Shown here in pieces: positions 3,041 to 22,101 of a DNA stretch of 29,166 nt. The stretch lies in NCBI GenBank assembly GCA_026984385.1, contig JALSSH010000604.1, forward strand, positions 1 to 29,166, read 5' to 3'. A program made the position numbers and the translations under genes. Origin of the DNA: Ardenticatenia bacterium (GTDB taxonomy: Bacteria > Chloroflexota > Anaerolineae > Aggregatilineales > Aggregatilineaceae). Numbering within the stretch: the stretch's first letter is position 1; each line of letters begins with the position of its first letter. The notes beneath the pieces were generated by a model, which was given only the letters and a program-made list of their open reading frames with translations, searched no databases and had not been told where the DNA came from.

Positions 3041-3043
3041 CTG

Positions 3044-3116
3044 TGCCCCTATGGGGATTCGAACCCCAGTCTTCACCTTGAAAGGGTGGCATCCTAGTCC
3101 TCTAGACGATAGGGGC
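3044..3116 (-). tRNA. tRNA-Glu (TTC), CCA not encoded
   Basis: Acceptor stem GCCCCTA/TAGGGGC, anticodon loop CT-TTC-AA, T-loop GTTCGAATC, 73 nt to discriminator A. Confidence 0.96.
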
Positions 3117-4312: not shown

Positions 4313-4326
4313 AGCGTCTCCTGATC

Positions 4327-6589: not shown

Positions 6590-6594
6590 CACTG

Positions 6595-7614
6595 CTACTC
6601 CTGGCGCGCCAAGCGCGCGCTCGCCAACTTGTGTACCCCTTCGGCAATCTCGCGCACGCCGTATTCGGCAAAGACCGGATCGGCGTCCAACACGGCTACC
6701 AACGCGGGATCGAAGGCGTCGAACCCGCGATACGCGCCCGCGATGGCACACGCAATCGCGCCGACCGTGTCCGCATCGCCGGAAAGGTTGGCGGCGTAGA
6801 TCGCGGTTTGTCTGGGGTCGCCTTCGGCCATCACCAGCACACCGAAGGCCGCGCCGAGCGTTTCCGGCACGCTGAGCGACGCCCCGACCACGTCGTAAAT
6901 TTCCACCAAGCGCGTAAAGGCGTCTCCCGAGCCACGCGCAATATGCACGCCCATCTCGATCCGTCGCGCCACCGAAGGGCCTAACCAGCGCCGCCCGTGT
7001 TGACGTCCCAACTCCGCGCCCATCATGCCCGCGCTGACCACCGCGTCGAGCGTGGCGTTTTCGGTCATCGCAACGGCAATCGCCGCCGCTACCGCCGCCG
7101 CGCCGCTGATCGCCACGTTGGTATTGTGTGTGGGTGTGCAAACCGTCACCGCGTCGCGCACCGCACCGAGCGGGTCGCCCGGGTGGAGCAAGCCCACCGG
7201 TGAGATACGCATCGGCGCGCCGTTGGTGTCGCCCCAAAGCCCCGTCGTGTGGGGGTCTTCGCCGCGTTTGAGCGCTTGCACGCCGCGCCGTGTGCTCGGC
7301 CCCACGTAGGGGGACGTTTCTCCGCCCACACGATCATACCAGGTGATGATCGCCTTGACCGCGCCTTCGAGCGTCACTCCGCCGTCGCGGATAAATTGCT
7401 GCGCCAGCGAAAAGGCTTGCTCGCTGTCGTCCGTGATGCGTCCGGCAGGTAGCCCTGCGTGCACCGGATGGTCATCCGGCGCGGGCAGGAATTTGTCGAT
7501 CCAACCGCCGTAGGCTTCCCATGTTTGGTAGGGATCAAAATAGGCGGGCATTCCCCATGCGTCGCCCAAGGCTTGCCCGTACAGCCCGCCCAGAATTTTT
7601 TCTTGCAGGGACAC
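6595..7614 (-). CDS. ADP-ribosylglycohydrolase (ARH/DraG/YegU) family protein
   Basis: GQALGDAWG, ITDDSEQA, NGAPMRISP, GDADTVGAIA metal-binding motifs; GTG start after AAGGAGG. Confidence 0.92.
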   Translation of the reverse strand: MSLQEKILGGLYGQALGDAWGMPAYFDPYQTWEAYGGWIDKFLPAPDDHPVHAGLPAGRITDDSEQAFSLAQQFIRDGGVTLEGAVKAIITWYDRVGGETSPYVGPSTRRGVQALKRGEDPHTTGLWGDTNGAPMRISPVGLLHPGDPLGAVRDAVTVCTPTHNTNVAISGAAAVAAAIAVAMTENATLDAVVSAGMMGAELGRQHGRRWLGPSVARRIEMGVHIARGSGDAFTRLVEIYDVVGASLSVPETLGAAFGVLVMAEGDPRQTAIYAANLSGDADTVGAIACAIAGAYRGFDAFDPALVAVLDADPVFAEYGVREIAEGVHKLASARLARQE

Positions 7615-7681
7615 GTGCCCCTCCTTCGTTCGGCATCAGAATAAACGACGTGGACAGGTGTTATGGCCTGTCTGGCATAAA

Positions 7682-7706
7682 CGGGGGCGTATGTCCTACG
7701 CCCCCG
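7682..7706. terminator. Perfect 10-bp hairpin between the permease and ARH genes (terminator or REP-like)
   Basis: CGGGGGCGTA-tgtcc-TACGCCCCCG; followed by TTTAT on the minus strand. Confidence 0.55.
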
Positions 7707-7725
7707 CTCAACTCATCACTGCCGC

Positions 7726-9192
7726 TCACGCCTGTGCAGGCGCGGGCTGTCGGTGGTTTCGCTGGAGTAAGTGTAACCCTCCCAGCGCTAACCAGATCGC
7801 AATAGAAACGGCCAGCCCGATCAAAAAGCCGAGCGTCACCGAGTGGTCGGCCAGCGACGTTGTTTCCACAAAGAGCATAAAGACCAGCCCTAAATAGAGC
7901 CACAGCGAAACCACCATCGCGCCCGCGCTGGCGAGCGGGTGGCGTCCGATACGCTCCACATCCAACATAAAGGGCAGATTCACGCCGATAAGGAACAACG
8001 AACCGGCCATGATCAGCCCCCCATAGAGAAACACGGTTGACGTGCTCCAGTCGGTCCCCAGGCTGAGAAAGCCCTTCGGCGCGGAAAACATACTCACACC
8101 GACCAATACGCCAAAAACGGCCACCATCGCCATGAACATATGCAGCACGCTCAAGCGCTGAATGGCGCTCCAGAAGGTCGCGTCAAAGCCCTCGCCTTCC
8201 GCCGAGCGCAACGTGCGAACCCGCACGGCAAGCTGATTTTGCAGCGCGTAGATTACCAGCGCCATCACTGTTGCCATGTAGGGCAACACTTGCGGCAACT
8301 GCGAGGGGATCTCCAGCGACCCCACGCGCACCGAAAGCGCGTCGAACGAGCCGAAGATGACCGAAGCCAACCCCGTCCCGATGGGGTGTCCTCCGCCCAG
8401 GTAGGGCGTCGCCAAGGCGATAAAGCCGCGTCCGGCGGTCATGTTCGCCTGGAAAAAGCCCAGGTAGCCCATGCTCATATGCACGCCGCCCAGCGCGGCC
8501 AGCACGCCGCTGAGCACCAACGCCAGATATTTGATGCGCGTCACGCGGATACCTACCGAGGCCGCCGCTTCCGGGTTTTCACCCACCGCGCGCAGATGGA
8601 TACCGGTCGGCGTGCGGTAGAGGAAGTACCACACCACCGCCACCGACGCCAACGCGATCCACGTCATCACGCTTTGGTTATCCAGCACTTGGTAGAAGAA
8701 AGAAACTACCGGAATATCGTTGAGAAACTTGGGCAGGTGGATAAAGGGCATCTTCATGCTCTCTAGGCCGCCCTGGGTGTTGCCACGGTCGCCGGTCAGC
8801 TCGTACATGATGGCGATGGTGGCCGATTGCCCCAGGAAGTTGATGGCAATGCCCGAAAGGATCAAGTCGGCTTTGAGCTTGAGGTGGAAAAAGCCGAGTA
8901 TCCACGCGGTGAGCACTCCCATCACCAAGCCCATCCCAAGCCCCAGCCAGGGGCCGACCATCCTTCCTGTATCGGCCCCCCACCAAGTTTGGGCGTAGGC
9001 GCTGAAGACCACGCCGGTAAAGGCCGAGATGAGCATGATCCCTTCTAGCCCGATGTTGATCACGCCCGCGCGGTCGGAGATCAGCGCGCCGAGTGACGGC
9101 AACAGGATCGGCGTGGTCACGCGCAACACAGAAGCGAGAAACGCCGCGCTGAAGATACCTTCCAAAACGTTCTGAAACAGTGAGTTATCCAT
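7726..9192 (-). CDS. Nucleoside/sugar ABC transporter permease (BPD_transp_2, CUT2 type) with about 170 aa C-terminal membrane extension
   Basis: VTTPILLPSLGALISDRAGVINIGLEG, GIHLRAVGENPEAAASVGI, TAGRGFIALA, PQVLPY. Confidence 0.9.
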   Translation of the reverse strand: MDNSLFQNVLEGIFSAAFLASVLRVTTPILLPSLGALISDRAGVINIGLEGIMLISAFTGVVFSAYAQTWWGADTGRMVGPWLGLGMGLVMGVLTAWILGFFHLKLKADLILSGIAINFLGQSATIAIMYELTGDRGNTQGGLESMKMPFIHLPKFLNDIPVVSFFYQVLDNQSVMTWIALASVAVVWYFLYRTPTGIHLRAVGENPEAAASVGIRVTRIKYLALVLSGVLAALGGVHMSMGYLGFFQANMTAGRGFIALATPYLGGGHPIGTGLASVIFGSFDALSVRVGSLEIPSQLPQVLPYMATVMALVIYALQNQLAVRVRTLRSAEGEGFDATFWSAIQRLSVLHMFMAMVAVFGVLVGVSMFSAPKGFLSLGTDWSTSTVFLYGGLIMAGSLFLIGVNLPFMLDVERIGRHPLASAGAMVVSLWLYLGLVFMLFVETTSLADHSVTLGFLIGLAVSIAIWLALGGLHLLQRNHRQPAPAQA

Positions 9193-11320
9193 GCGCGCCC
9201 TCCTCGGCAGGGGTCAGCGAGCCGTTGCCGTTTTGGCCTTCTCCCATATCCAATTCGAGCGTCCCCCGTCGCCGGATGCGGCGGCGGCGGACGAACGTCA
9301 CCAGCGCTTCCGCCGTGATGAGCAAGATCACCACTGCTTGGATGATGCGCACGACCTCCGAGCTGATATTGGCGTCGCGCTCCATCACTTGCGCGCCGGT
9401 ACGCAGATAGGCGTAGAGCAGCCCCGTAAAGGGCACAACCAGCGGGTTATTGCGTGCCAGCAGCGCCACCACCACGCCCTCAAAAGCCAGCCCAACGGAG
9501 ATATTCAGGATCAAGCGGCGGTGCATCCCCATTGCCAGGTGCGCGCCCGCCAAACCGGCCACCGCGCCGCTGATCGCCATGACCAACATAATCGTGCGCT
9601 TGGTGTTCACCCCGCCGTAGTTGGCGAACTTGATGTTTGCGCCGATCATGCGGATTTCGTAGCCGATGGGCGTGCGGCGGATCATCAGCCAGGTGAGCAC
9701 CACCATCGCGATCACGATATAGACGGCGATGGTGACTTGGTCGCCGGTCACGTCCACGATCGGGGCCAGCAGGCCGTTTTCAGGAATCCAGTCCGAATAG
9801 GTGTAGCCCGCGTCCGGCGGTTTGAGCTGGAAGGTGAGCACCATCTCGTAGAAACGCTGCGCGACCATGTTCAGCATCAAGGTTGAAACAAGCTCGTCTG
9901 CGCCCAAATACGCTTTCAGCGCGCCAGGGAGCAGTCCCCAAAGGAAGCCTGCCGTCGCCGCCGAAAGTAGCGCGATGGGCACGAGCAGATAGGACGGCAG
10001 ATTGCCGAAAGTCAGCCCGACCACGCCGGAGACCAACGCGCCGAAATAGAGCTGCCCTTCCGCGCCCAAGCTGAACTGGCGCGCGCGGAAGACCATCGCG
10101 ATGGAAAGCCCCAACAAGATCAGCGTCAGCGCGTCCCGAATCCAAACCACCCAGCGGTTCAGACGGCTCAACGGCCCAAGCAAGAAAGCGTCATAGGCTT
10201 TGTTGGTGGCCTTGATCGTCTCCTTGATGCGCACGCTGGTATCCAGGGGGTTGGGGCGCACATAAACCGTGTAAACTCCCTCTGCGGGCAACGTTACATC
10301 TTGCAAGATCGCGTCGCGCGTGCTTTTCAGCTCGCGGGAGAACTGCTCCACTTGCGCATCGGTAGCGTTGTCGTTGAAGGCGATCTTTTCGCCGTCTGGC
10401 CCGTAGAGCGTCACTTGCAAGTCCATCCCCACTTCGGGGCGTGAAACGTAAGCCAGGATCGTCACCACATCGCCCTCACGTCCGGCGAAGTGATATTCGG
10501 CCTCACGCAAGGGATTGGAGACTTTCTCCTTGTTGAAGATCGCGCCAACCGGTTTGCTGTTGTAAGCAAAGTCCACCAGCGGGGGCGCATCAGAAACCAG
10601 GGCGACGGTGACTTCTGCGTTGACCTCTTCCACGCCTTCGGCAGCTTGCGCCGTGATGGTGTAAAAGCCGTCTTCGGGCAAGGTGAAGTCTTGGATGACG
10701 TAGCCGTTTTTCTTGGTCAGATAGCGACGGAAAGCGCGCGTTTGGGTTTTGGTGGCTTGCGTGCCCTCGCCAAGCACGTTACCGTTCTCGTCGCGCAACG
10801 TCAAGGCCAACGGCAGCTCTACGTCTTGGTCCACATAGGCCAACACCGAAACGACATCGCCCGCCCGCCCGGCGAACGTGTAGCTGACCGCGTCCTGCGG
10901 TGAGCTGAACTCGGTGGCGATCTTTTCACCGTAATTGATGGTAGTCAGTGCTTCGGCATCCGAAACAACTTTGATGCGGAACTCGCCGCGAATTAAGCTA
11001 TCAGCAGCATCTAGACTGAAAAAAGCCGTCATCAGATAGCCGAAAATAAGCGCGACGACCACCGTTAACAACACGCGCGCCGCGTCCCAGCGCAGCTCCC
11101 AAATGAGCAAAAAGACGCTGAATCCCGCCAGGGCGTTGATCAACAAAACGCTGAGCGGCCCGGGCGTGGCTTGGATGGCGTCCTTCACTTCGGAAAGAGA
11201 CATGCCCAAGCCGAGGCCATAAGCCTTATAGCTCAAAAACAACAGCGTGAGCACAGCCATTACGAAGCCGAAGAGAGGGAGCGTCAGTCGGTTACCTTTT
11301 TGCGCGGTTTTGGGTTTCAT
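9185..11320 (-). CDS. Nucleoside/sugar ABC transporter permease with two inserted PPC-like extracellular domains
   Basis: C-terminal core FSLGAEGQLYFG, ELVSTLMLN, GYEIRMIGAN, LAFEGVVVALLARNNP; N-terminal part has a tandem YxFAGRxGDVV...TLPxxGxYT repeat. Confidence 0.88.
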   Translation of the reverse strand: MKPKTAQKGNRLTLPLFGFVMAVLTLLFLSYKAYGLGLGMSLSEVKDAIQATPGPLSVLLINALAGFSVFLLIWELRWDAARVLLTVVVALIFGYLMTAFFSLDAADSLIRGEFRIKVVSDAEALTTINYGEKIATEFSSPQDAVSYTFAGRAGDVVSVLAYVDQDVELPLALTLRDENGNVLGEGTQATKTQTRAFRRYLTKKNGYVIQDFTLPEDGFYTITAQAAEGVEEVNAEVTVALVSDAPPLVDFAYNSKPVGAIFNKEKVSNPLREAEYHFAGREGDVVTILAYVSRPEVGMDLQVTLYGPDGEKIAFNDNATDAQVEQFSRELKSTRDAILQDVTLPAEGVYTVYVRPNPLDTSVRIKETIKATNKAYDAFLLGPLSRLNRWVVWIRDALTLILLGLSIAMVFRARQFSLGAEGQLYFGALVSGVVGLTFGNLPSYLLVPIALLSAATAGFLWGLLPGALKAYLGADELVSTLMLNMVAQRFYEMVLTFQLKPPDAGYTYSDWIPENGLLAPIVDVTGDQVTIAVYIVIAMVVLTWLMIRRTPIGYEIRMIGANIKFANYGGVNTKRTIMLVMAISGAVAGLAGAHLAMGMHRRLILNISVGLAFEGVVVALLARNNPLVVPFTGLLYAYLRTGAQVMERDANISSEVVRIIQAVVILLITAEALVTFVRRRRIRRRGTLELDMGEGQNGNGSLTPAEEGAHG

Positions 11321-12858
11321 AGGTACTGCTCCATTTCTTCGGGGGGTTGCCGCTCCGCGCCGAGCATATACAACCCCAGCTTATCCTCGGTCAAGTCCGG
11401 CGTGTTGGGGAAGACCGCCACGATCTCGCCTTCATACATCACCATAATCCGATCCGAGAGCTTCATCACCTCTTGCAAGTCCGCCGAGATGAGCAAAATA
11501 GAAAGCCCGCTGGTACGTTGGTCCACAAGTTGCTGGTGGATGTACTCAATCGCGCCAATATCCACACCGCGCGTCGGCTGGGCGGCGATAAGCAAGCGGG
11601 GGGAGGAAGAAAGCTCGCGCGCCACCACCACTTTTTGCATATTGCCGCCGGAAAGGGACCCCACCGGCAAGTTCGGCCCGGGCGCCAAAATATCAAAGCG
11701 CTCGATCAGTTCCTCACCGTGTTGGCGGATGGTGCGCAAGTCCAGCAGTCCGTGCCGCGTAAAGGGCGGGCGATAGTAGCGATCTACGATCAGGTTGTCG
11801 CCGATGGTCGCGTCTACGGCGACGCCGTTGGTCAGGCGATCCTCGGGGATATGCGCGACATGCGCTTCTCGCACTTTACGCGGCCCAGACCCCAACACCT
11901 GTGCGCCATCTACATACGCTTCTCCACCGGAAGCAGGGCGCAATCCGGTGAGCACTTCGACCAACTCGGTTTGGCCGTTACCTTCTACGCCCGCAATGCC
12001 CAGGATTTCACCCTCGTAGGTGGTAAAGGTGGCGTTGTGGAGCAAAGTCCGTCCGGTCTCGTTGATATAGGTTAGCCCGCGCACCTCCAAAACCGGCTTG
12101 CCGCGCTGGACGGGGGGCTTGTCCACCTGCATAAAGACCTCACGCCCCACCATCATCCGCGCAAGCTCGGCCTCGTTCGTTTCCGAGGTGTTGACCGTGC
12201 CCACCGTGCGCGCGTCGCGCATCACGGTGACGCGGTCGGAAATTTCCATGACCTCGCGCAGCTTGTGGGTGATGAAGATGACCGTTTTTCCTTCGTCCAC
12301 CAAGTTTCGAATGGCGGTGAAGAGGTCTTTGGTTTCGCGTGGGGTCAGCACAGCGGTTGGCTCGTCCAAGATCAGGATTTCCGCGCCGCGATAGAGCGCC
12401 TTGAGGATTTCTACACGCTGGCGCATTCCCACCGGCACGGTATCTACGCGCGCAGTTGGCTCAATATGCAGCCCGTACATTTCGGAAAGTTTGCGCGTGT
12501 CTTCGATAATCGAGGGCACGTCAACGGAAAGCCCGCGCGTAGTTTCCATGCCCAACGCGATATTTTGGGCGATGGAGAACGAGTCCACCAACATAAAGTT
12601 TTGGTGAACCATGCCGATCCCCAGGTCAATGGCTACCTGCGGGTTACCGATCTCAACCCGCTGGCCGCGCAGCCAAATCTCACCCTCGGTAGGCTGTTCT
12701 AGCCCGTAGAGGATTTTCATCAAGGTGGACTTGCCCGCGCCGTTTTCCCCGACCAGCGCGTGGATTTCCCCCTTTTCGACAGAAAGGTGCACATGGTCGT
12801 TGGCGAGCACACCGTTGGGATAAATTTTGACAATATCTCTTGCTTCTATGATCGTCAT
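11317..12858 (-). CDS. ABC transporter ATP-binding protein with two NBDs (CUT2/nucleoside type)
   Basis: GENGAGKST, MVHQNF, ILDEPT, GVEGNGQ, LSGGNMQK, AAQPTRG. Confidence 0.96.
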   Translation of the reverse strand: MTIIEARDIVKIYPNGVLANDHVHLSVEKGEIHALVGENGAGKSTLMKILYGLEQPTEGEIWLRGQRVEIGNPQVAIDLGIGMVHQNFMLVDSFSIAQNIALGMETTRGLSVDVPSIIEDTRKLSEMYGLHIEPTARVDTVPVGMRQRVEILKALYRGAEILILDEPTAVLTPRETKDLFTAIRNLVDEGKTVIFITHKLREVMEISDRVTVMRDARTVGTVNTSETNEAELARMMVGREVFMQVDKPPVQRGKPVLEVRGLTYINETGRTLLHNATFTTYEGEILGIAGVEGNGQTELVEVLTGLRPASGGEAYVDGAQVLGSGPRKVREAHVAHIPEDRLTNGVAVDATIGDNLIVDRYYRPPFTRHGLLDLRTIRQHGEELIERFDILAPGPNLPVGSLSGGNMQKVVVARELSSSPRLLIAAQPTRGVDIGAIEYIHQQLVDQRTSGLSILLISADLQEVMKLSDRIMVMYEGEIVAVFPNTPDLTEDKLGLYMLGAERQPPEEMEQYL

Positions 12859-13106
12859 CTACTACCCCCTAGATTAGGATGTCGGGGCACGGGAAGCGCT
12901 TCAGCCCGTCTGACCGTTTGACCGGTGCATAAGCCAGCACAGCGAAGATGTGCCGAGCGTAGCGTGGGCTGGTGATGGGCTGAGCGGGTGCTGAGTGGGA
13001 AAAGGACGATGCAACAGCACAAAGGGGAGAGGCGGCATACCAGAGAGAGATGGAAAGAGCCATGTTGGTTTTGTGTTCCGCGAACGCACCCGCAAACTAA
13101 TAGCAA

Positions 13107-13133
13107 ACTGGGGCGAGCATAGCTCACCCCAGT
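13107..13133 (-). terminator. Hairpin after the substrate-binding protein gene (weak terminator or mRNA-stability element)
   Basis: Minus strand ACTGGGG-T-GAGC-tat-GCTC-G-CCCCAGT, continuous with one G-U pair only on this strand, followed by TTGCTATTAGTTT. Confidence 0.6.
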
Positions 13134-13154
13134 CAATACGTGATTGTGCCCGAC

Positions 13155-14330
13155 TTACTGCGCCAGGTACTCCGCAGCGTCGAAGTCTACTTCCGGCATC
13201 TCGTCGCAAGCCATGCCGACCTCGGCCAAGCTATAGCCCAAGTCCAAGCGCGCTTCGAAGACGGTGTTCACGGTCACTTCGCCAGCTTCCAGCTTCTCGG
13301 TGGTCGCGTCCATCAAGTCCAGGATGTTTTCCGGCGTGTTTTCGTAGTAAATATCGTTCATCGCCAAGCCAACGCCGCCCTTGCTCACGCCCAAAACTTC
13401 GGCCTGGCCGTAAGGCAGTTCGCCCTTCAGGTGCAAGTCAATGGCGCGGAAGAGGGAGTTGTCCACGTTCTTCATCATGCTGGTGAGAATGTGCTGGGCT
13501 TGCTCGGGGTCGGTGTCCGCGATGATGGTGGCCTGGTCGGAGTCCACGCCGATCGCGTAGTGGCCCTGCTCGTAGGCTGCCTCAAACACGCCCACACCCG
13601 TGCCACCGGCCACCTGGAAGACGATGTCCGCTTTTTGTTCGTACATCGCCAGGGTGATTTCTTTGCCTTTGGCGGGGTCGTTCCAACCGCCGGCATACTG
13701 GACGATCACGTCCACGTCGGGGTTAACCAGGCAAGCGCCTTGTTCATAGCCAACGATGAAGTCGTTGATGACCGGAATATCTTGCCCACCGATCACGCCG
13801 ATGATCGCGTCGTCATTGACGCCTTCGATGCCGCTGGTGGTGATAGCTGCCGCATACACGCCCGCCAGGAACGAACCTTCGTTCTGGGCGTATTGCACGG
13901 AGTAGACGTTGGTGCAGCCCTCGACGCAATATTCGGGGTCGTCGTAGGGAACGGAGTCATCGTAGAAAATGAAATACTTGTCCGGATACAGATGTACGCG
14001 CTTGGCGAGGAATTCGCCCATCTGGAACGTGCCGACGATCAACACGTCGTAGTTGTCCACGTCGGCCATCGCGTCGCTCAGGCCACTTTCCCAGTTGGCA
14101 GGGTCAATGCCCAGCTCAATGGTGTTGACCTCGACGTTGTAGCCCTCGTCGATCAGGCGATCCATGCCGCGCTGCGCGGAATCAAAGAAAGACTTGTCGC
14201 CCAAAACGCCGTTGATCACCAATGTGATGCGCAAGGGTTGGTCTTGAGCCGACGTGCGGGAGGGGACGGCAACCGCCGCCACCACCATAACCATAACGAT
14301 GGCTAGTGCAAGGAACTTTGAACGGGTCAT
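13155..14330 (-). CDS. BMP/PnrA-family ABC substrate-binding protein (nucleoside-binding type)
   Basis: LGDKSFFDSA, NEGSFLAG, GVIGGQDIPVINDFIVGY, DIVFQVAGGTGVGVFEAA, IGVDSDQ; Sec signal peptide ending TSA-QD. Confidence 0.93.
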   Translation of the reverse strand: MTRSKFLALAIVMVMVVAAVAVPSRTSAQDQPLRITLVINGVLGDKSFFDSAQRGMDRLIDEGYNVEVNTIELGIDPANWESGLSDAMADVDNYDVLIVGTFQMGEFLAKRVHLYPDKYFIFYDDSVPYDDPEYCVEGCTNVYSVQYAQNEGSFLAGVYAAAITTSGIEGVNDDAIIGVIGGQDIPVINDFIVGYEQGACLVNPDVDVIVQYAGGWNDPAKGKEITLAMYEQKADIVFQVAGGTGVGVFEAAYEQGHYAIGVDSDQATIIADTDPEQAQHILTSMMKNVDNSLFRAIDLHLKGELPYGQAEVLGVSKGGVGLAMNDIYYENTPENILDLMDATTEKLEAGEVTVNTVFEARLDLGYSLAEVGMACDEMPEVDFDAAEYLAQ

Positions 14331-14385
14331 GTTTCTACACTCCTAAGCGAAATCTCCAAATATATAGGGATATGGTGCTGTTCAC

Positions 14386-14414
14386 ACTATAACCGACACG
14401 GTTAATTGCGTCAA
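14386..14414 (-). promoter_or_regulatory. Sigma70-type promoter of the ABC/nucleoside cluster with an inverted repeat in its spacer
   Basis: TTGACG (14414-14409), 17-nt spacer, TATAGT (14391-14386); TAACCG-aca-CGGTTA at 14390-14404. Confidence 0.8.
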
Positions 14415-14476
14415 GTTTCGCGCGCATGGGCACAGGGCTTAGCAACATTTGATTTTCGCCCTTAACTTCATCTCTA

Positions 14477-14519
14477 TGGTATAACACACTTGACCGAAAT
14501 ACTCATATCGAATTATAGG
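14477..14519 (+). promoter_or_regulatory. Promoter candidates upstream of the PrsW fusion gene
   Basis: Extended -10 TGgTATAAC (14477-14485); TTGACC (14490-14495), 18-nt spacer, TATAGG (14514-14519). Confidence 0.5.
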
Positions 14520-14520
14520 G

Positions 14521-14579
14521 AGAAAGGCGCATTTCTTCCTCACCTGAAGGCGAGGAGCTTCTGCGCCAACGTTCTATGA
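14521..14579 (+). mobile_element. Orphan IS200/IS605 (TnpB-associated) right-end-like hairpin, no transposase
   Basis: GGCGCA...TTCCTC-A-CC-tgaa-GG-C-GAGGAG...TGCGCC interrupted hairpin; pattern resembles IS605-group right ends as I recall them, not database-verified. Confidence 0.5.
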
Positions 14580-14628
14580 CCTCAAAAGTAGCGCACGTCC
14601 TTGACCGGCACACATAACGGAAAGTGCC

Positions 14629-16440
14629 ATGAGCACAGTTGCTTTAGTCGGCTATTTTGTGGCGCTGGCATTGCCCGCGCTGACTATTTATCTTTTTGTG
14701 ACGTTGGACGTTTTTGGCACAGGCCGCCCCAGCACCGTCTTTTTGTGTGCGGGGTGGGGCGCGCTGGGCGCGTTTTTCCTCGCTTGGGGTTTTAACAGCG
14801 CTATCTCAGCGCGCGGCGTTTCTTATACACTGCTGACTTCGGCGGTCGCACCGGTAGGCGAGGAACTGCTCAAGGCGTTGGTACTCATCTACCTGATCCG
14901 CAGCCCCCGTTTTCGTTACATTGTGGACGGCGCGGTATACGGCATTGCCGTAGGGTTGGGCTTTGCGCTTTCGGAAAATCTGTTTATTTACTTGCCCCAA
15001 GCAGGAGACGCTGTGTTGGGGGTGGCGTTGAGCCGTGCGCTTTCCACTTCGCTTATGCACGCTACCGCCAGCGGTCTAGTGGGCATCTCACTGGGTCGCC
15101 TGCGGCGCACCGATAGCGCACGCCGCAAGATGTTCCCGCTGATCGGCATTGGCTTGGCGATCTTGCTACACGCCACTTATAACAACCTGGCCGCACACTT
15201 GGAGGGCGTGCCATTGTTGTTTGTGGCGATGGGGGTGGGCGTCGGTGGTGGCTTGGTGATCGCGTGGGAGATTGTGCAAGGGCTGACCGACGAAAAACGC
15301 CGCTTCACCGAAACGCTCAGCCACGACGTGGACGTTTCCGAAGGGGAACGCGAAGCCGTCCAACGTCTGGGAGATGTCGGCATTGAGCACGTTTTCCGTG
15401 AGCTACGCGATTATTTCGGCGACGAGAACATCGCCCTCATTCGTCGTTTGCTTTCCATTCAGGCCAATATCGGCATTTTGCGCAACAATTTACAAGGGCC
15501 AGCCAGCGAAAGGTTGCGCCGCGCCTGGGAAGAAGAGATCGAGGCTTATCAGGAGGAGATGGAGGAAGTGCGTCGCCAATTAGGGCGCTCGGTGTTGCTC
15601 TTCGTGCAGCGTGTCTTTCCCACCAACGATGAGGCCCTTCAAGAAGTGCTCAACGAGGAGCTGGCGCGTTTTGACCCCACCTTTGTCCACCGCTTTGATA
15701 TGTTCATGCGCATCTCCGGCCTGGCGGAAACTTTCACACCGGAGCAACTTACCGCGATGGCCGAACGGCTGAGCCAAATCGATATTTTCCGCGATGTGTC
15801 GTTGGCAAACTTGGAAAACCTAAGCCGTGCGATCAAGGTGCAAGAATTTGAGGACGGAGAGGTGCTTTTTAACGCGGGCGATGAGGGAAACGCGATGTAT
15901 TTGGTGGAAGAGGGGCAGATCGCCATTTACGTTCCCAGCGATGGCGACGAAAAGCTCTTGCGCACCTTCCAACCGGGGAGCGTGGTGGGCGAATTCTCGC
16001 TATTAGACGGGCGTCCGCGTTCGGCACGCGCCCAAGCTGTTGGGCACGTGCGCACGCTGATGTTGGAACGCCAGGTCTTCACCATGTTTATCCAAAGCCG
16101 CCCGTTGGTGGTTCTGGCAATGTTACGCTATCTGGCGGACAAGGTGCGCTACACCACAAAATCCGTCGAGGCGGCGGTCGAATGGATGACACGCATCAGT
16201 CGCGGCGAATATATGCCGATGGAAGTTGAAGCTCCCGCGCCGCAACCTCAACCCCCCGCGACGGAAGTTATCTTGGAGCCGGACACGCTCTCACCGGAAA
16301 CGCCGGAGCAGGTGAGCGGTGTATTTTCGGCGGTCGCTTCCCGACTTTACGAGCGAGAGCACGCCATGCGTCAACCATTGACGCCACCGACGGACAAGCA
16401 TCCTCAAGATGAGCACACAGAACGAGAGCGCAATGAGTGA
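14629..16440 (+). CDS. PrsW-family intramembrane metalloprotease fused to a cyclic-nucleotide-binding domain
   Basis: PrsW motifs APVGEELLK (EExxK), GFALSEN (FxxxEN), HATASG, LHATYN; C-terminal cNMP domain GDEGNAMYLVEEGQIAIY...GEFSLLDGRPRSA. Confidence 0.9.
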   Translation: MSTVALVGYFVALALPALTIYLFVTLDVFGTGRPSTVFLCAGWGALGAFFLAWGFNSAISARGVSYTLLTSAVAPVGEELLKALVLIYLIRSPRFRYIVDGAVYGIAVGLGFALSENLFIYLPQAGDAVLGVALSRALSTSLMHATASGLVGISLGRLRRTDSARRKMFPLIGIGLAILLHATYNNLAAHLEGVPLLFVAMGVGVGGGLVIAWEIVQGLTDEKRRFTETLSHDVDVSEGEREAVQRLGDVGIEHVFRELRDYFGDENIALIRRLLSIQANIGILRNNLQGPASERLRRAWEEEIEAYQEEMEEVRRQLGRSVLLFVQRVFPTNDEALQEVLNEELARFDPTFVHRFDMFMRISGLAETFTPEQLTAMAERLSQIDIFRDVSLANLENLSRAIKVQEFEDGEVLFNAGDEGNAMYLVEEGQIAIYVPSDGDEKLLRTFQPGSVVGEFSLLDGRPRSARAQAVGHVRTLMLERQVFTMFIQSRPLVVLAMLRYLADKVRYTTKSVEAAVEWMTRISRGEYMPMEVEAPAPQPQPPATEVILEPDTLSPETPEQVSGVFSAVASRLYEREHAMRQPLTPPTDKHPQDEHTERERNE

Positions 16441-17080
16441 CATCTCAACAACGGGTCTGGTGGCTATCGCCGAGCGCCTCGCCGATCATGCGCTTTTCAA
16501 AGGCGTGGAGCGGGCCGACCGCGAAGCACTGATCCACGTCATGGAACGACGGCATTTTCCCAAAGGAACGGTGCTCTTCCGCAAAGGCGACCCGGGCAGC
16601 TCGATGTATATCATCCTCAGCGGCAAGGTGCGCATCTACACCGAGGACGCTGAGGGTAACGAGTTCACTATACGTTACCTTTCGGAGATGTTCGGCGAGT
16701 TTTCGATGTTGGACGAACGCCCACGTTCGGCCTCTGTGGCGGCAGCGGAAGATTTGGATGTGCTGATCTTGCATCGCGACGACTTCACGCGCTATTTGCG
16801 CGAACACCCCATGGTTGGGCTGGCGATGATGCGCAACTTGGTGGAACGAGTGCGTTACACCACCACCTACCTCCAGCGCGTGATCGAGGCCACACGTCGG
16901 CTTGCCGAAGGAAATTTGGAGGTGGACATGCACAACGCGCCGGAGGCCGAAACGGATGGCGAAATTCGGAGCTTGATCCGGACTTTTGTGCAGATGGTGC
17001 GACAAGTGCAAACGCGCGAGATTGCTTTGCAGCAGGGCCTAAAAGCCGATCAGTCTTCTGGGGAGGCTTCCTCCGATTGA
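16433..17080 (+). CDS. Cyclic-nucleotide-binding domain protein with C-terminal HAMP-like segment
   Basis: LFRKGDPGSSMYIILSGKVRIY...GEFSMLDERPRSA, then VIEATRRLAEGNL...DGEIRSLIRTFVQM; start set at ATG 16433 overlapping the prsW stop (ATGAGTGA), 16409 also possible. Confidence 0.85.
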   Translation: MSDISTTGLVAIAERLADHALFKGVERADREALIHVMERRHFPKGTVLFRKGDPGSSMYIILSGKVRIYTEDAEGNEFTIRYLSEMFGEFSMLDERPRSASVAAAEDLDVLILHRDDFTRYLREHPMVGLAMMRNLVERVRYTTTYLQRVIEATRRLAEGNLEVDMHNAPEAETDGEIRSLIRTFVQMVRQVQTREIALQQGLKADQSSGEASSD

Positions 17081-18180
17081 GCGGAAGTGTTGTGTTCGGC
17101 GTCCGCCAACGTTTCGGCATTTTCCAGCTTGATAATCACCGCGCTGATGTTGTCTTCGCCGCCGCGCTGGTTCGCCAAGTCGATCAGTGCCTGAGCTGCT
17201 TCTGCGGGCGTGGTACTACATGTCGCAAATTGGGCGATCTCAAACGGTTTGACGTGGCGCGTTAGCCCGTCGCTGCAAAGCACCAGCCAATCCCCTTCGG
17301 CCAGCTCCCGACTGTATAGATCAGCTTCCACGTCTTCCACTTGCCCCAAAGCACGGTAAAGCACGTTGCGCATCGGGTGGACGGCGGCTTGCTCATGGGT
17401 GATGTGGCCGGAAGCAAGCAGCGCCTCAACAAAGCTGTGGTCGTCCGTCACCTGGTTGATCCAGCCGTTTTTCCCGTTGATCAAATAGGCGCGGCTGTCT
17501 CCCACGTGGGCAATGATCACGCGGGGGCTGCGCACAAAAGCCAGCGTGACCGTTGTACCCATGCCTTGATAAGCGGGATATTCCTCGGCGCGTTCGATGA
17601 TGGCGCGATTGGCGCGGCGAATGGTGGTGCGCAGTTTGTCCGCGATCTCGTCATCGGAAAGCGCGCGTAGCGTTTCGCTGCCGCGCACCGCCCCCAGGAA
17701 TTCAGCTTGGATCGCTTCTAACACCAAGCGGCTGGCTTCTTCACCTGCGGCGGCCCCGCCCATGCCGTCCGCAACTACGGCCAACACCACGCCTTCCCGT
17801 GCCCAAAGCCCGACGCGGTCTTCGTTGTTGCCACGCACGCGCCCCACGTTGGAAATAGCGCTCACGCGCGGGACGGGCTGTGTGGGGTCGAAATCTTCCG
17901 GCACAGAAAGCGACGCTCCACACCCGATGCAATAACGGGCTAGGGGTTGGTTGGGCGTGCTGCAACGCAAACAGATAATCGCGGCTTCTAATGAGGCGGA
18001 GGTGATGTTGAGAAAGCGTGCGGTTGCGTCTTGAGGGTGGGTGTTCTCTTCGAGAAGGCGGCGGTGTTTGTGCACACCGTGCGCGGCGGCTTTTGTTTCC
18101 AAACGGGCGCCGCATTGGAAGCAAAAAACCGCGCGTTGCAAATTTTCATGCCCGCACACCGAACATAGACGGGTTTTCAT
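17050..18180 (-). CDS. PP2C/Stp1-family Ser/Thr phosphatase with two N-terminal double zinc ribbons
   Basis: SNVGRVRGNNED, VADGMGG, AHVGDSRAY, DHS, LCSDGL, GGEDNIS; CSVC...CFQC and CLRC...CIGC; start set at ATG 18180. Confidence 0.92.
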   Translation of the reverse strand: MKTRLCSVCGHENLQRAVFCFQCGARLETKAAAHGVHKHRRLLEENTHPQDATARFLNITSASLEAAIICLRCSTPNQPLARYCIGCGASLSVPEDFDPTQPVPRVSAISNVGRVRGNNEDRVGLWAREGVVLAVVADGMGGAAAGEEASRLVLEAIQAEFLGAVRGSETLRALSDDEIADKLRTTIRRANRAIIERAEEYPAYQGMGTTVTLAFVRSPRVIIAHVGDSRAYLINGKNGWINQVTDDHSFVEALLASGHITHEQAAVHPMRNVLYRALGQVEDVEADLYSRELAEGDWLVLCSDGLTRHVKPFEIAQFATCSTTPAEAAQALIDLANQRGGEDNISAVIIKLENAETLADAEHNTSAQSEEASPED

Positions 18181-18218
18181 GGTCGCACCCTTTTGAATGG
18201 TCGGTTTCCCTAGCTTGA

Positions 18219-18246
18219 ATTTTACTGCCCAGCGGCAGCCGTGCAA
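18219..18246 (-). promoter_or_regulatory. Sigma70-type promoter candidate for the PP2C gene
   Basis: TTGCAC (18246-18241), 16-nt spacer, TAAAAT (18224-18219). Confidence 0.55.
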
Positions 18247-18269: not shown

Positions 18270-19532
18270 CTAGTTGGGTAGTTGTAATGTGAGCGGAAGC
18301 TCGATGTAAAATGTGCTGCCCGGCAACTCGGTTTCACTGCGTCCGGCGCTTTCTACCCAGATATGCCCTTGGTGCGCCTCCACAATCCCTTTGCAGATCG
18401 CCAACCCCAACCCCAGCCCGCCGCCGCGAAAGGCGGCTTTGCTGGTGGAGTGGAGCTGGGTGTCTCCTGTGACGTAAAAGCGGTCGAAGATGTACGGCTG
18501 ATCTTCCGGCGCGATGCCGATGCCGCTATCTTGAAAGACGATGCGCACAAAAGGTTCGTCAGCGTCCTCGACACGTTCCACATACAGCGAGATCGTGCCG
18601 CCGTCCGGCGTGTATTTGATGGCGTTGCTCAGCAAATTGCTAAAAGCCATTTCGAGCATCTGCTTATCCGCCACCAACGAGATTTTCCAGTCTTCCGGCG
18701 TCAGTTGCAATTGCAAGGCACGTTGGGTCAACACGGGAGTATAGTCCACGATCACCTGGCGAATGCTCTCTGCCAGATTGGTATAAGCCAGCCGCAAGTC
18801 TACTCTGCCGGAAGCGATGCGCGAGACGATAACGATCTCGTCCACCACTGCGTGCAAACGCTCGATGGCGGTCAGCAAGCCGGTGAGGGTGGCGTTGGCT
18901 TCTGTGTTCGTCGCCATCAACTGCTGGATGGCGGGCAGCGTTTGTACCAGGCGGCTGTAACCGTAAACGGTGGTCAACGGCGTGCGCAGCTCGTGCGCGG
19001 TGAGCTGGATAAAATCATCCTTCAGCCGGTCGAGCCGTTGCAGTTCGCGGTTGCGCGTTTCCAACTTGCGCACGGTTTCTTCTAAGCGCGTGATCAACTC
19101 TTGGTGATAGGCGCGACGGGCTTCGTCCAGGTCTTCGATGGGGGGCGCGGGGAGCTGTCCTGCCAGGCATTCTTCCACCGTGTGCACCAACATCTGCAAG
19201 TTGATCGGTTTGGTGATGTAGCCGTTGACACCGGCCACCAACGTTTTGCGCCGCTCGAAGTCGTGGATCTGGGCCGTCACGGCGATGATGGGCACATTGC
19301 ACAGCTCGCCATCGGCACGCAGTCGGTCGGTGATCTCGCGCCCGCTCATGTCCGGCAAATTGATATCGGTCAGGATCAAATCCGGATGATGTTGGCGCGC
19401 CATGTCCAATCCGTCCAGGCCGGTCGGGGCGATCAGAACGCGATAGCCGTTATGGGTGAGGATGCGATGAATGAGCGTTTGGCTATCGGGATCGTCTTCG
19501 ACATAAAGGATTGTGGCTTTGGGGCTGGTCAT
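18270..19532 (-). CDS. Soluble hybrid receiver-histidine kinase (REC-HisKA-HATPase)
   Basis: REC: YVEDD, LTDINLPDMSG, ITKP; H-box AHELRTPLT; N-box LSNAIKY; DSGIGI, IFDRFY, GLGLGLAI; no hydrophobic TM segment. Confidence 0.93.
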   Translation of the reverse strand: MTSPKATILYVEDDPDSQTLIHRILTHNGYRVLIAPTGLDGLDMARQHHPDLILTDINLPDMSGREITDRLRADGELCNVPIIAVTAQIHDFERRKTLVAGVNGYITKPINLQMLVHTVEECLAGQLPAPPIEDLDEARRAYHQELITRLEETVRKLETRNRELQRLDRLKDDFIQLTAHELRTPLTTVYGYSRLVQTLPAIQQLMATNTEANATLTGLLTAIERLHAVVDEIVIVSRIASGRVDLRLAYTNLAESIRQVIVDYTPVLTQRALQLQLTPEDWKISLVADKQMLEMAFSNLLSNAIKYTPDGGTISLYVERVEDADEPFVRIVFQDSGIGIAPEDQPYIFDRFYVTGDTQLHSTSKAAFRGGGLGLGLAICKGIVEAHQGHIWVESAGRSETELPGSTFYIELPLTLQLPN

Positions 19533-19566: not shown

Positions 19567-22101
19567 TTAGCTGATCTCGGCGAGTTGGTCGGGGCCGTGT
19601 AGCTTTTGGGCCAACAGCGCGTGTTCGTCGTGCTGGAGCTGCGGGTCTTCCGCGTAGACGGTGCGCGCCTCGCGTTGGGCCAGCTCCACCAGCTTTGGGT
19701 TGATCTGTTCGGCTAGGCGGAAGCGGGTCATGCCGCTTTGTCGCACGCCGAGCAAATCACCCGGGCCGCGCAATTGCCAATCCAGCTCGGCCAAGCGAAA
19801 ACCGTCTGTGGTGGCCTCAATTGCGGCCAAACGTTTGGCAGCCTCTTCCGCGTTGCTGGTGTTGACCAGCAAGCAGAAGGATTTGTGCTCGCCACGCCCC
19901 ACACGCCCCCGAAACTGATGCAATTGTGCCAATCCGAAGCGCTCCGCGCTCTCGATTAAGATCACGTTGGCGTTGGGCACGTCCACGCCCACCTCGACCA
20001 CCGCCGTCGCCACCAAAATATCCAGCTCGCCCGCCGCAAAAGCGGCCATGACGGCTTCCTTGTCGCTCGGAGACATGCGCCCGTGCACCAACCCCACACG
20101 CAGATCGGGGAAAATCTCTTTTTGCAGCCGTTCATGCTGTTCGGTGGCCGAGCCGAGTTCTTGCAGCGCTTCGGAAGTTTCCACCAACGGGTAGATGATG
20201 AACGCTTGTCGCCCCCGTTCTACCTGCGCGCGGATAAACGTGTAGGCGCGCTCGCGTTCCAACGAGGTGAGCACGCGCGTCTCAACCGGCGTGCGACCGG
20301 GCGGCAGCTCGTCAATGACGCTCAAGTCCAAGTCCGCGTAAAGCGTCAACGCCAACGTGCGCGGGATCGGCGTGGCAGTCATCACCAGCACATGCGGATG
20401 AGTGCCCTTGCTGCGCAGCGCGGCGCGCTGTTCCACACCGAAGCGGTGTTGTTCGTCGATCACGGCCAGCGCCAAATCGTGGAATTGCACGCCTTCCTGG
20501 ATCAGCGCGTGCGTGCCGACGACCACCTGGACGCTACCATCGGCCAGTCCGGCGTAAATTTCCTCGCGTTCGACGGCGCTTGTGCGCCCGGTGAGCAAAC
20601 GCAGCGTGATCTGCTCACCTTCCGGCAGCCGTCCCAGCAGATCGGCCAGCGTGCGGGCGTGTTGTTCGGCCAGAATGCTGGTGGGGGCCATCAGCGCGGC
20701 CTGTTTGCCGTTGCGCACAGCCATTCCCAACGCCAACGCCGCCACCGCTGTTTTGCCCGAGCCGACGTCGCCTTGCAAAAGGCGGCTCATCGGCACGTCG
20801 CGCGCCAAGTCTGCGCGGATGTCTTCCAAAGCGCGCCGTTGGGCAGCGGTGAGCGTGTAGGGCAGGGCGGCCAACGCGCTCTCCAGCCACTCGTCGGTCA
20901 CCGATAGCGGTTGCCCGGGCACAGATTGCCATGCGCGCCGTTGAGCTTGCATCTCCATTTGGAAGAGGAAAAGCTCGTCAAAGGTGAGCCGCCGCCGCGC
21001 GTATTCCAGCGCCTCGAAGGAGTCCGGAAAGTGCACTTGTTGCAGCGCCCAACTCAAATCTGCCAGGTCTGCGCGTTCCAAGACGCTGAGCGGCAAGTGT
21101 TCGGGGATGCGCGTGGCCCATTGTGTGACCACTTGGCGCACCAAGCGGCGCATAGTGCGCGCGGAGATGCCGCGCGTCAACCCGTAGACGGGCACGATGC
21201 GCCCTACATGCAGATTTTCGCGCTCCAACATCTCCCATTCGGGGTTGGTCATGGTGGGCTGACCGCGAAAAAGCTCCACCTTGCCGCTCAAAACAACCAT
21301 ACTGCCCCGCTTGAACTGTTTTTGTAGCCAGGGCTGGCCGAAAAATGCGACGTTGAGCAGCCCTGTTCCGTCGTCCACCGTCACGAAAAGATACGCGCGC
21401 TTGCCCGTCGCCACCCTTTGCGCCACCGAGCGCACCGCCGCGATCACGGTGACCGTCTCGCCCGGGCGCAGCCGGTTGAGCGTGCGTAGCTTGCTATAGT
21501 CGTCGTAGCGGCGCGGGAAGTACAAGAGCATATCCGCCACTGTGCGAATGCCGAGCTTTTCCAAGCGTTGGGCCATCTTTTCGCCCACGCGCGGCAGCGT
21601 GGTGACCGGCGCTTGCAGCGCCGCGTAGCGCTCGGCGGCCTCTTGCGGCTCTAGCGCGGCGTAGCGTCGGCGTGGCGGGCGAAACGGCGCAGATGCCGCG
21701 ATGGTGGCCGTCGGTGTGGTTTTTCGCGGACTGGGGGGCGAGGCAGGCGTGCGTTTTTCCGACGTGAGCGGCGGTGTTGTTGATGGTGCGGCGGATTGTT
21801 CTTGTGCATAAGTGGAAGGGGGCAAGTCCGACGGCGCGGGGACGCGCCCCATGATGCGCCCCAGCATGTACTTCACCACCTCATGGCGTGCTTTGGGGGC
21901 GTCTTGTTCTCCGTATCGGCGCAAATAGCCCTCCAGCTCGTCTATCAGTTGATGATGTTCGGGACGTTTGGCTTGTTGGTGGGCGTCTTGCACCCAGTGC
22001 TCCACAAACGACTCCAACCCACCGATAACGGCGGTGTTTTTGTAGCCGGTTTCTTGTTCCAACTTCAGTATCTTGACCAGAGTTTCCAACGCCGAAGGCA
22101 T
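19567..22101 (-). CDS. recG: ATP-dependent DNA helicase RecG with N-terminal extension
   Basis: Wedge region LLYFPRRYDD, RRRLTFDELF, LQGDVGSGKT, DEQHRFG, TATPIPRTL, QFRGRVGRG, DWQLRGPGD. Confidence 0.97.
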   Translation of the reverse strand: MPSALETLVKILKLEQETGYKNTAVIGGLESFVEHWVQDAHQQAKRPEHHQLIDELEGYLRRYGEQDAPKARHEVVKYMLGRIMGRVPAPSDLPPSTYAQEQSAAPSTTPPLTSEKRTPASPPSPRKTTPTATIAASAPFRPPRRRYAALEPQEAAERYAALQAPVTTLPRVGEKMAQRLEKLGIRTVADMLLYFPRRYDDYSKLRTLNRLRPGETVTVIAAVRSVAQRVATGKRAYLFVTVDDGTGLLNVAFFGQPWLQKQFKRGSMVVLSGKVELFRGQPTMTNPEWEMLERENLHVGRIVPVYGLTRGISARTMRRLVRQVVTQWATRIPEHLPLSVLERADLADLSWALQQVHFPDSFEALEYARRRLTFDELFLFQMEMQAQRRAWQSVPGQPLSVTDEWLESALAALPYTLTAAQRRALEDIRADLARDVPMSRLLQGDVGSGKTAVAALALGMAVRNGKQAALMAPTSILAEQHARTLADLLGRLPEGEQITLRLLTGRTSAVEREEIYAGLADGSVQVVVGTHALIQEGVQFHDLALAVIDEQHRFGVEQRAALRSKGTHPHVLVMTATPIPRTLALTLYADLDLSVIDELPPGRTPVETRVLTSLERERAYTFIRAQVERGRQAFIIYPLVETSEALQELGSATEQHERLQKEIFPDLRVGLVHGRMSPSDKEAVMAAFAAGELDILVATAVVEVGVDVPNANVILIESAERFGLAQLHQFRGRVGRGEHKSFCLLVNTSNAEEAAKRLAAIEATTDGFRLAELDWQLRGPGDLLGVRQSGMTRFRLAEQINPKLVELAQREARTVYAEDPQLQHDEHALLAQKLHGPDQLAEIS

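Follow-up and report, generated by a model that had tools for sequence, protein, structure and literature searches.

In Bacillus subtilis, PrsW (YpdC) is the site-1 protease of RsiW, the anti-sigma-W factor (reviewed in PMC10202637; see also PMC3498285). PrsW domains fused to PilZ, cyclic nucleoside monophosphate (cNMP)-binding, FHA or Zn-ribbon domains have been listed as likely signalling peptidases (Zhang, de Souza, Anantharaman, Iyer and Aravind, 2012, PMC3482391). In the CalpL-CalpT-CalpS system of type III CRISPR, a nucleotide messenger leads a protease to cut an anti-sigma factor, which frees an extracytoplasmic function (ECF)-like sigma factor (bioRxiv 10.1101/2024.05.08.593097). Here we analyzed a gene for a PrsW-cNMP fusion protein in a stretch of 29,166 nucleotides from an Ardenticatenia bacterium (Chloroflexota, Anaerolineae; GenBank assembly GCA_026984385.1, contig JALSSH010000604.1, positions 1 to 29,166), the whole of which is called the window below. 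What switches PrsW on is unclear even in Bacillus, and a family with a sensor of its own allows the input, a cyclic nucleotide, to be named. We tentatively propose, with slightly less than even confidence, that the protein is a PrsW protease under the cytoplasmic control of a cyclic nucleotide, most likely cyclic AMP (cAMP), and that it would make the site-1 cut in a membrane anti-sigma factor. Public annotation already labels proteins of this family as PrsW and CRP-like cAMP-binding protein; their hosts are uncultured Anaerolineae from hydrothermal vent, wastewater and groundwater. The gene belongs to a variant of the PrsW pathway that has been catalogued but not characterised.

The open reading frame (ORF) at 14629-16440 on the forward strand is a single unbroken frame encoding 603 amino acids (aa) in four parts. 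These parts, the motifs inside them and the gene directly downstream are as follows.

14629..16440 (+): whole gene, P0001, 603 aa; PrsW, helical middle domain, cNMP-binding domain and HAMP-like tail
14629..15285 (+): PrsW intramembrane protease domain, residues 1-219 (Pfam PF13367); seven transmembrane (TM) helices, N-terminus outside and C-terminus inside
14860..14874 (+): catalytic motif 1, E78-E79-L-L-K82; E78 and E79 invariant, K82 at least 90% conserved (43 sequences)
14962..14979 (+): catalytic motif 2, F112-A-L-S-E116-N117; F112 and E116 invariant, N117 at least 90% conserved (43 sequences)
15058..15060 (+): catalytic motif 3, H144; invariant (43 sequences)
15169..15183 (+): catalytic motif 4, H181-x-x-x-N185; H181 and N185 both invariant (43 sequences)
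15286..15783 (+): middle domain, residues 220-385, cytoplasmic and helical; attached only to PrsW, no Pfam family
15784..16128 (+): cyclic-nucleotide-binding (CNB) domain, residues 386-500 (Pfam PF00027)
15988..16026 (+): phosphate-binding cassette, G454 to A466; G454, R464, S465 and A466 invariant
16129..16437 (+): C-helix and HAMP-like tail, residues 501-603; conserved VRYTT helix, Pro-rich insert, terminal helix 558-584
16409..17080 (+): P0122, cNMP-binding and HAMP domains, 223 aa (215 aa from the ATG at 16433); Pfam cNMP_binding E 5e-23, HAMP E 2e-8

The PrsW-protease match (PF13367; MEROPS family M82) covers residues 35-197 (E 3e-29; 102.3 bits against a cut-off of 23.5). Conservation was read from an alignment of 43 homologues with 28-88% identity to the window's protein, in which E78, E79, F112, E116, H144, H181, N185, G454, R464, S465 and A466 are invariant. 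The initial annotation, made from the sequence alone, had reported all PrsW catalytic motifs and a complete phosphate-binding cassette, and both were borne out: every catalytic motif lies at the position listed above and is invariant or nearly so, and the cassette, which reads G454-E-F-S-L-L-D-G-R-P-R464-S-A466, is intact. The catalytic residues, those of motif 1 included, are also at least 90% conserved among 92 wider family members. The protein scored 49.6 bits against the cut-off of 225 for the B. subtilis PrsW equivalog (NCBIfam NF033739) and lies outside that equivalog.

The cNMP_binding match (PF00027) covers residues 405-490 (E 1e-21; 77.2 bits against a cut-off of 27.5), and the CNB domain gave profile matches to PKG, PKA-R and CRP. 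Pfam found no helix-turn-helix (HTH) family in the protein, as the initial annotation had said of the CRP-type HTH, so that the C-terminal DNA-binding domain typical of CRP/FNR transcription factors is absent. Its last approximately 100 residues, absent from that description, form a HAMP-like tail homologous to the tail of small cNMP-HAMP proteins (hhalign probability 97.4%, E 1.4e-11). Relative to the P0122-type tail, the connector of the fused tail contains about 16 extra, Pro-rich residues, and the Pfam HAMP family (PF00672) gave no match on the fused tail alone. P0122, in which the HAMP match reached 34.9 bits (cut-off 25), is paralogous to the C-terminal module of the fusion. It overlaps the stop codon of the PrsW gene by 32 nt, or by 8 nt if read from the ATG at 16433, which is preceded by GAGAG. 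Near the junction of the two genes there is only one weak terminator-like site, on the opposite strand, a count not above that of shuffles. In a census of 75 loci from species-representative genomes, 67 of which have at least 1.7 kb of upstream DNA, a small cNMP-HAMP gene lies downstream of PrsW in 53 of the 67. P0122 is probably a second sensor subunit or a modulator.

The AlphaFold2 model of the whole protein (mean pLDDT 81.7; pTM 0.51, a value that leaves the interdomain arrangement uncertain) contains seven TM helices (residues 3-26, 34-61, 66-90, 98-124, 130-160, 164-190 and 194-231), a helical cytoplasmic domain, a CNB beta-barrel, a long C-helix and the terminal helix 558-584. The loops at 91-97 and 156-167 are rich in Lys and Arg and fit the cytoplasmic side. 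Because of these loops and the cytoplasmic C-terminus, we assigned an N-out, C-in topology, from which the Glu and His motifs would lie in the middle-to-outer half of the membrane. The PrsW part matched the fold of APH-1B (Z 16.3, 202 residues aligned over model residues 1-227); with this match and its seven TM helices, it has the CPBP/APH-1-type multi-pass fold of the PrsW family. The CNB part matched CRP-type regulators, PKG and HCN/CNG channels (Z about 17), with HCN/CNG/SthK-type channel domains at Z 15-17, and NtcA, DNR and the CNB domains of PycTIR were also among its structural matches. A segment of low confidence, residues 231-249, directly follows the last TM helix. Folded alone, the middle domain gave a poor model (pLDDT 62), and whole-model fold searches returned no match centred on it.

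The region between protease and sensor had been described as a helical or coiled-coil linker of about 165 residues. The helical part of this description stands. The coiled coil does not: residues 220-385 form a strongly conserved domain that is not of low complexity, with a mean column identity of 67%, and 22 positions are invariant in the aligned stretch 214-392, which is wider than the domain itself. A profile of the domain gave 152 hits among 1.84 billion representative proteins, nearly all of which start approximately 210-230 residues into the protein. A PrsW domain is present in 87 of the 92 full-length hits, and a fused CNB domain in 31. Because the hits nearly all sit behind PrsW, this distribution marks the middle domain as a cytoplasmic domain specific to PrsW, by which a 'signalling PrsW' subfamily is defined. 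For the middle domain we found no Pfam family, no sequence relative in the PDB and no usable Atlas hit. Single middle-domain proteins bear REC, PAS, CheW or DnaJ in place of the CNB domain; going by these architectures, the scaffold of PrsW and middle domain is one that accepts other sensors.

A fusion of this kind could have been a frameshift artefact absent from relatives, an outcome that the initial annotation had named as fatal to its reading. A database search returned at least 251 relatives, and the best 120 of these all contain both Pfam domains, are approximately 510-710 aa long and are labelled Anaerolineae or Chloroflexi. Further, contigs in four metagenome runs from three studies (hydrothermal vent and others) span the gene and its domain junctions with substitutions only and no indels. 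An artefact of frameshift or assembly is ruled out by the 120 two-domain homologues and the four indel-free runs, and the fusion is real. The RNA runs that we searched for the window stretch gave no match. A member of the PrsW family is present in 78 of 201 sampled genomes of the same order and in 32 of the 41 genomes of the window's own family. Some genomes of the order have two or three PrsW paralogues, of which only one is sigma-linked; the genome of the window has a single PrsW.

The sensor and the protease also occur as separate proteins. At least seven sampled genomes of the same class encode a split form, in which a protein of about 367 aa, consisting of PrsW and the middle domain, is followed directly by a cNMP protein of about 245 aa; the two genes often overlap by 4 nt. 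A tree of the sensor modules resolved three well-supported groups, made up of the fused modules from the window's clade, the small proteins encoded downstream of PrsW, and the split proteins. Nested within the split group (100/100) is the fused module of genome G139. Therefore, fusion arose at least twice. We regard this record of fusion and fission as strong comparative evidence that sensor and protease work together. Three contigs (L070, L102 and L105) are filed under metagenome-assembled genomes of Oceanobacillus sp. and Pleurocapsa and carry the full Anaerolineae-type cluster; they nest in Chloroflexota clades on the PrsW tree and are probably mis-binned contigs rather than cases of gene transfer. 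At a further locus, L013 (G056), a split gene for PrsW and the middle domain is followed by a BTAD/TPR transcriptional-activator-like protein, with no cNMP protein.

No ECF sigma/anti-sigma pair is present inside the window, which agrees with the initial annotation, where a neighbourhood search for cyclases or anti-sigma factors had been suggested. This search was productive in the relatives. An orthologous ECF sigma gene lies directly upstream on the same strand, within 4 kb, in 32 of the 67 loci, is accompanied by a small protein with two TM helices (two-TM protein) in 30, and a gene for a cyclase-STAND (cyclase-AAA_16) protein is present in 19. These sigma factors are mostly approximately 60-80% identical to our two sigma queries. 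The recurrent cluster, seen in gene calls on long contigs that carry homologues, consists, in order, of genes for a ParA-like ATPase, a 72-aa Cys-rich protein, a 127-aa protein, a cyclase of about 1020 aa (PF00211) with AAA_16, the ECF sigma factor, a 140-aa protein, PrsW-cNMP, the small cNMP protein and a second ParA-like protein. Sigma linkage varied with identity to the window's protein: it was found in none of 20 loci at 58% identity or above, in 17 of 25 at 50-58% and in 15 of 22 below 50%. On the PrsW tree, sigma-linked loci appear at several deep branches, and the unlinked clade of the window (29 rows, 96/95) is sister to a linked clade of 24 rows. Because of these deep branches and this linked sister clade, the linkage is probably ancestral and was lost once in the window's clade.

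The corresponding genes are found elsewhere in the genome of the window, on two contigs, C340 and C467.

L044:6915-9380 (C340): sigma promoter (about 6915-6945), sigma gene, two-TM anti-sigma candidate (7500-7952) and two small envelope proteins
L045:40-4596 (C467): ParA/MinD-like ATPase, 72-aa Cys-rich mini-protein, an ORF at the position of the 127-aa protein, and a cyclase of 1087 aa

C340 carries the sigma orthologue (62% identity) and an overlapping two-TM protein beside a ParA-like gene. C467 carries the cyclase-STAND protein (47% identity over the full length), in a cluster of the type that directly precedes the sigma/anti-sigma/PrsW genes in sister clades. Thus, a cognate ECF sigma factor with a candidate membrane anti-sigma factor exists outside the window, both in the loci of relatives and on C340. 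The two envelope proteins of C340, which may belong to the same operon, have 195 aa with an N-terminal TM helix and 200 aa with an SdrD_B-like domain and a C-terminal TM helix. Among the 201 genomes of the order, 55 have both sigma orthologue and PrsW, 23 PrsW only, one sigma only and 122 neither; these are plain counts over related genomes, which are not independent. In the window's family, sigma factor and PrsW lie on different contigs yet co-occur. Six nearly complete genomes of one genus contain neither the sigma orthologue nor a PrsW family member.

The two-TM protein is the candidate substrate. It is about 140-150 aa long and, across 33 sequences, consists of a conserved cytoplasmic head, TM1, an outer loop of about 20 residues with a conserved L-x-G-[T/A]-A-x-G motif, TM2 and a basic C-terminus; no Pfam anti-sigma family matched it. 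When the genome's own sigma factor was modelled together with the two-TM protein (residues 1-88), the predicted complex reached an ipSAE of 0.72 in all three runs, and the best control 0.00; the mark used was reached by 51 of 78 solved complexes and by 2 of 108 mismatched pairs, and passing it denotes likeness to sigma/anti-sigma pairs, not binding. In the prediction the two-TM protein touches both region 2 and region 4 of the sigma factor, a pattern familiar from known sigma/anti-sigma pairs. The model supports an anti-sigma role of the two-TM protein.

In 32 of 33 loci, the genome of the window included, the sigma gene is preceded at a distance of 40-75 nt by an ECF-type promoter of the form G[GC][CA]AC-N16-18-[AG]CGAC; the promoter on C340 reads GGGGAAC-N16-ACGACCTA. 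A scan of this genome with the strict motif gave eight hits, of which only the sigma gene's own promoter precedes an ORF. Before PrsW, such a promoter was present in only 1 of 33 sigma-linked loci and in neither the window nor the 26 loci of its clade. Because the promoter was not found there, PrsW is probably expressed independently of the sigma factor, which fits what an activator would need.

The linked cyclase bears on the identity of the messenger. For its first cyclase domain, in which both metal-binding Asp residues are retained, the best match was the C1 domain of soluble adenylyl cyclase (E 2.4e-12); its second domain has His and Val at the metal-Asp positions, like a C2 domain; AAA_16 and TPR regions lie behind the tandem domains. 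This layout, similar to that of soluble adenylyl cyclase, points to cAMP as the probable messenger. An Arg-Ser-Ala cassette is found in cAMP binders and cGMP binders alike, so the cassette does not itself decide between the two nucleotides. The genome of the window encodes eight ORFs with class III cyclase domains, seven with CNB domains and several candidate M50 site-2 proteases.

Apart from P0122, the surroundings of the PrsW gene in the window are as follows.

3353-14330 (-): nucleoside and pseudouridine salvage cluster
14331..14628 (no strand): upstream intergenic region, 298 nt, without an ECF-type promoter
17050-18246 (-): double-Zn-ribbon PP2C (Stp1-like) phosphatase
18270-19532 (-): REC-HisKA-HATPase kinase with an N-terminal receiver domain

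The PrsW gene is flanked by core genes (ilvC, nucleoside salvage, RecG and FakA), and no ParA-like gene lies inside it. The Zn-ribbon PP2C and the REC-histidine kinase are kept near PrsW in 13 loci, all within the window's subclade; this may reflect plain synteny or a clade-specific partner. Between 14421 and 14513, metagenome contigs of three runs break, with loose ends at 14421, 14430/14431 and 14513 and unrelated sequence beyond; the region upstream of PrsW is therefore a strain-variable junction. The salvage cluster encodes an inosine-uridine nucleoside hydrolase, a PsuG-like Indigoidine_A protein and a PfkB kinase, together with two ABC permeases, an ABC ATPase and a Bmp/PnrA binding protein. 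Stretches without assignment are found in the PfkB ORF (5633-7237; about 215 N-terminal residues) and in a permease ORF (9185-11320; about 390 residues). RecG helicase (19567-22101, minus strand, 844 aa) has approximately 165 residues before its wedge domain, in which there were only weak helix-hairpin-helix-type matches. The sole RNA family match in the window was tRNA-Glu (anticodon TTC; 3043-3116, minus strand).

The pathway that we envisage begins with the soluble-adenylyl-cyclase-like cyclase-STAND-TPR protein on C467, which would produce the messenger. cAMP would bind the C-terminal CNB domain, and the helical middle domain would relay the change to the seven-TM protease, by analogy with the C-linker in HCN/CNG channels. 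PrsW would then cut the two-TM protein on C340, the candidate hairpin anti-sigma factor, at site 1 in its outer loop, after which a site-2 protease, one of the M50 proteases of the genome, would complete sigma release. The HAMP-like helices may let the small paralogue pair with the fused module. For this complete chain, from cyclase through cAMP and the CNB modules of PrsW and the small paralogue to the cleaved anti-sigma factor and an autoregulated ECF sigma factor, our confidence is slightly lower again and stays somewhat short of even. We infer nucleotide binding, nucleotide identity, gating, substrate and direction of regulation from sequence and genomic context. The suggestion in the initial annotation that a cytoplasmic second messenger controls membrane proteolysis gained computational support from residue constraint, from the fused and split forms and from synteny with sigma and cyclase genes.

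Several points weigh against this proposal. The sigma/anti-sigma pair is not adjacent to PrsW in the window or in the 20 scorable loci of at least 58% identity; because of this, the substrate assignment for the window copy rests on co-occurrence and on the single PrsW of the genome. The sigma factor's promoter is missing before PrsW throughout the window's clade, as described above, and the 23 PrsW-positive genomes without a detectable sigma orthologue mean that some family members act on something else. The uncertain interdomain arrangement of the model and the limited meaning of the complex score belong here too. CNB folds can bind ligands other than cyclic nucleotides. Finally, our literature search found no experimental work on the PrsW-cNMP family. 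The initial annotation, too, knew of no characterisation of the logic, which has not gone wholly unnoticed: the architecture is listed in PMC3482391.

Several of these observations would also be expected if the protein were a cNMP-gated protease with a different substrate here, such as another membrane regulator or damaged membrane proteins, and if the sigma link held only where the genes are adjacent. The absence of linkage in the 20 scorable loci of the subclade, the retention of the PP2C and kinase neighbours in 13 loci, the 23 genomes with the PrsW family but no sigma orthologue, and the genomes in which only one of two or three paralogues is sigma-linked are all in line with this. However, the genome of the window, with its single PrsW, has kept the sigma/two-TM pair and the cyclase, and a sigma orthologue occurs without a PrsW family member in only 1 of 56 genomes; we consider a different substrate unlikely, although it deserves serious attention. 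Rather than gating catalysis directly, the sensor modules may instead feed, through their shared C-terminal tails, a relay of a MinD/ParA-like ATPase, a mini-protein with four CxxC motifs and a small helical protein, with PrsW as its output or anchor. In sister clades the cluster is bordered by ParA-like genes along with those for the 72-aa Cys-rich and 127-aa proteins, and in the genome of the window ParA-like genes stand beside the sigma gene and at the head of the cyclase cluster. Against such a relay, the tail profile matched only two proteins in the whole genome, both encoded in the window, where there is no ParA-like gene, and the occurrence of split as well as fused forms ties the sensor to PrsW itself. 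We rate the relay as rather improbable.

It is more doubtful that the CNB fold binds no cyclic mononucleotide and serves for another small molecule, or for docking or dimerisation as in some CRP/FNR-type domains. The superfamily does include sensors for haem, 2-oxoglutarate and further ligands, and NtcA and DNR were among the structural matches. Yet the Gly-Glu and Arg-Ser-Ala positions for ribose and phosphate are intact, with G454, R464, S465 and A466 invariant, genuine binders of cAMP or cGMP head both the sequence and the fold matches, and a cyclase is genomically linked in 19 loci. Very little probability falls to the idea, taken by analogy from the self-processing proposed for PrsW-toxin fusions (PMC3482391), that PrsW would cut its own chain and release the cytoplasmic cNMP-HAMP module as a soluble signal, to which the low-confidence segment 231-249, just past the last TM helix, would lend itself. 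The same paper separates signalling fusions from toxin fusions, in the split variants the module is already a soluble protein of its own, which makes release needless, and the active-site residues, in the topology assigned here, would lie in the middle-to-outer half of the membrane, far from the cytoplasmic tail. It is hardly credible that the protein is an anti-phage effector of the Pycsar kind, in which a membrane protein binds a cNMP (cCMP or cUMP), is thereby activated and damages the membrane. PADLOC models for PycTIR and for Pycsar effectors do hit the CNB domain (E 1e-10), and PycTIR CNB domains were among the fold matches, but the PADLOC match is confined to this domain, no Pycsar cyclase is adjacent and the protease residues are conserved. 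We rejected this and other defence systems because of the core-gene flanks, the CNB-only PADLOC matches and inheritance along the lineage (32 of 41 genomes of the family).

A PrsW protease gated by cAMP thus remains the reading that we tentatively prefer. If it is true, it would be the first instance in which a classical cyclic mononucleotide gates regulated intramembrane proteolysis, would provide a defined trigger for PrsW enzymes and would join cAMP signalling to ECF sigma control through membrane proteolysis. It would also show that a cytoplasmic domain can gate an active site near the outer membrane face. To our knowledge, no route from classical cyclic mononucleotides to ECF sigma control via membrane proteolysis has been described so far. 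The remaining parts come from the comparative data: the cyclase, the sigma factor with its recognisable autoregulated promoter, the small candidate substrate with its conserved motif in the outer loop, and a probable second sensor subunit. The present analysis adds the unlinked partners in the window's own genome, the test of the sigma/anti-sigma interface, the co-occurrence counts and the sigma promoter; it also shows that fusion occurred repeatedly, defines the middle domain and describes the HAMP-like tail.

Compared with B. subtilis PrsW, the window's protein belongs to the same Pfam family and is a multi-pass membrane enzyme with the same four catalytic motifs, and about half of its relatives adjoin an ECF sigma factor and a membrane anti-sigma factor, the known class of PrsW substrates. 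It differs by approximately 385 additional cytoplasmic residues, which form the middle domain, the CNB domain and the HAMP-like tail. RsiW-type substrates are single-pass proteins with a folded outer domain, whereas the candidate here is a two-TM hairpin with an outer loop of about 20 residues; the trigger proposed for the window's protein lies in the cell interior, not in envelope stress. The signalling peptidases of PMC3482391 are of the same architecture class and were given the same inferred logic, in which a signal sensed by the fused domain leads to cleavage, but that paper devotes one sentence to them, without a family description, partners or substrate. The TM fold is common to the window's protein, to CPBP/Rce1-type proteases and to the gamma-secretase subunit APH-1, a relationship cited in PMC3482391; APH-1 is non-catalytic, lacks the Glu and His motifs and has no detectable sequence similarity to the window's protein. 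In HCN/CNG/SthK channels, as in the window's protein, a membrane domain is followed by a helical linker and a C-terminal CNB domain, and the channels pass cytoplasmic binding on to the membrane part. That part is a pore rather than a protease, and the likeness between middle domain and C-linker is an analogy of mechanism only. The CalpL-CalpT-CalpS system shares the sequence of events that we propose, in which a nucleotide second messenger acts on a protease, an anti-sigma factor is cut and a sigma factor is released. CalpL, however, is a soluble SAVED-Lon protease that responds to cyclic tetra-adenylate in immunity, whereas the window's protein carries a CAP-type CNB domain on an intramembrane protease and belongs to a chromosomal, lineage-wide module.

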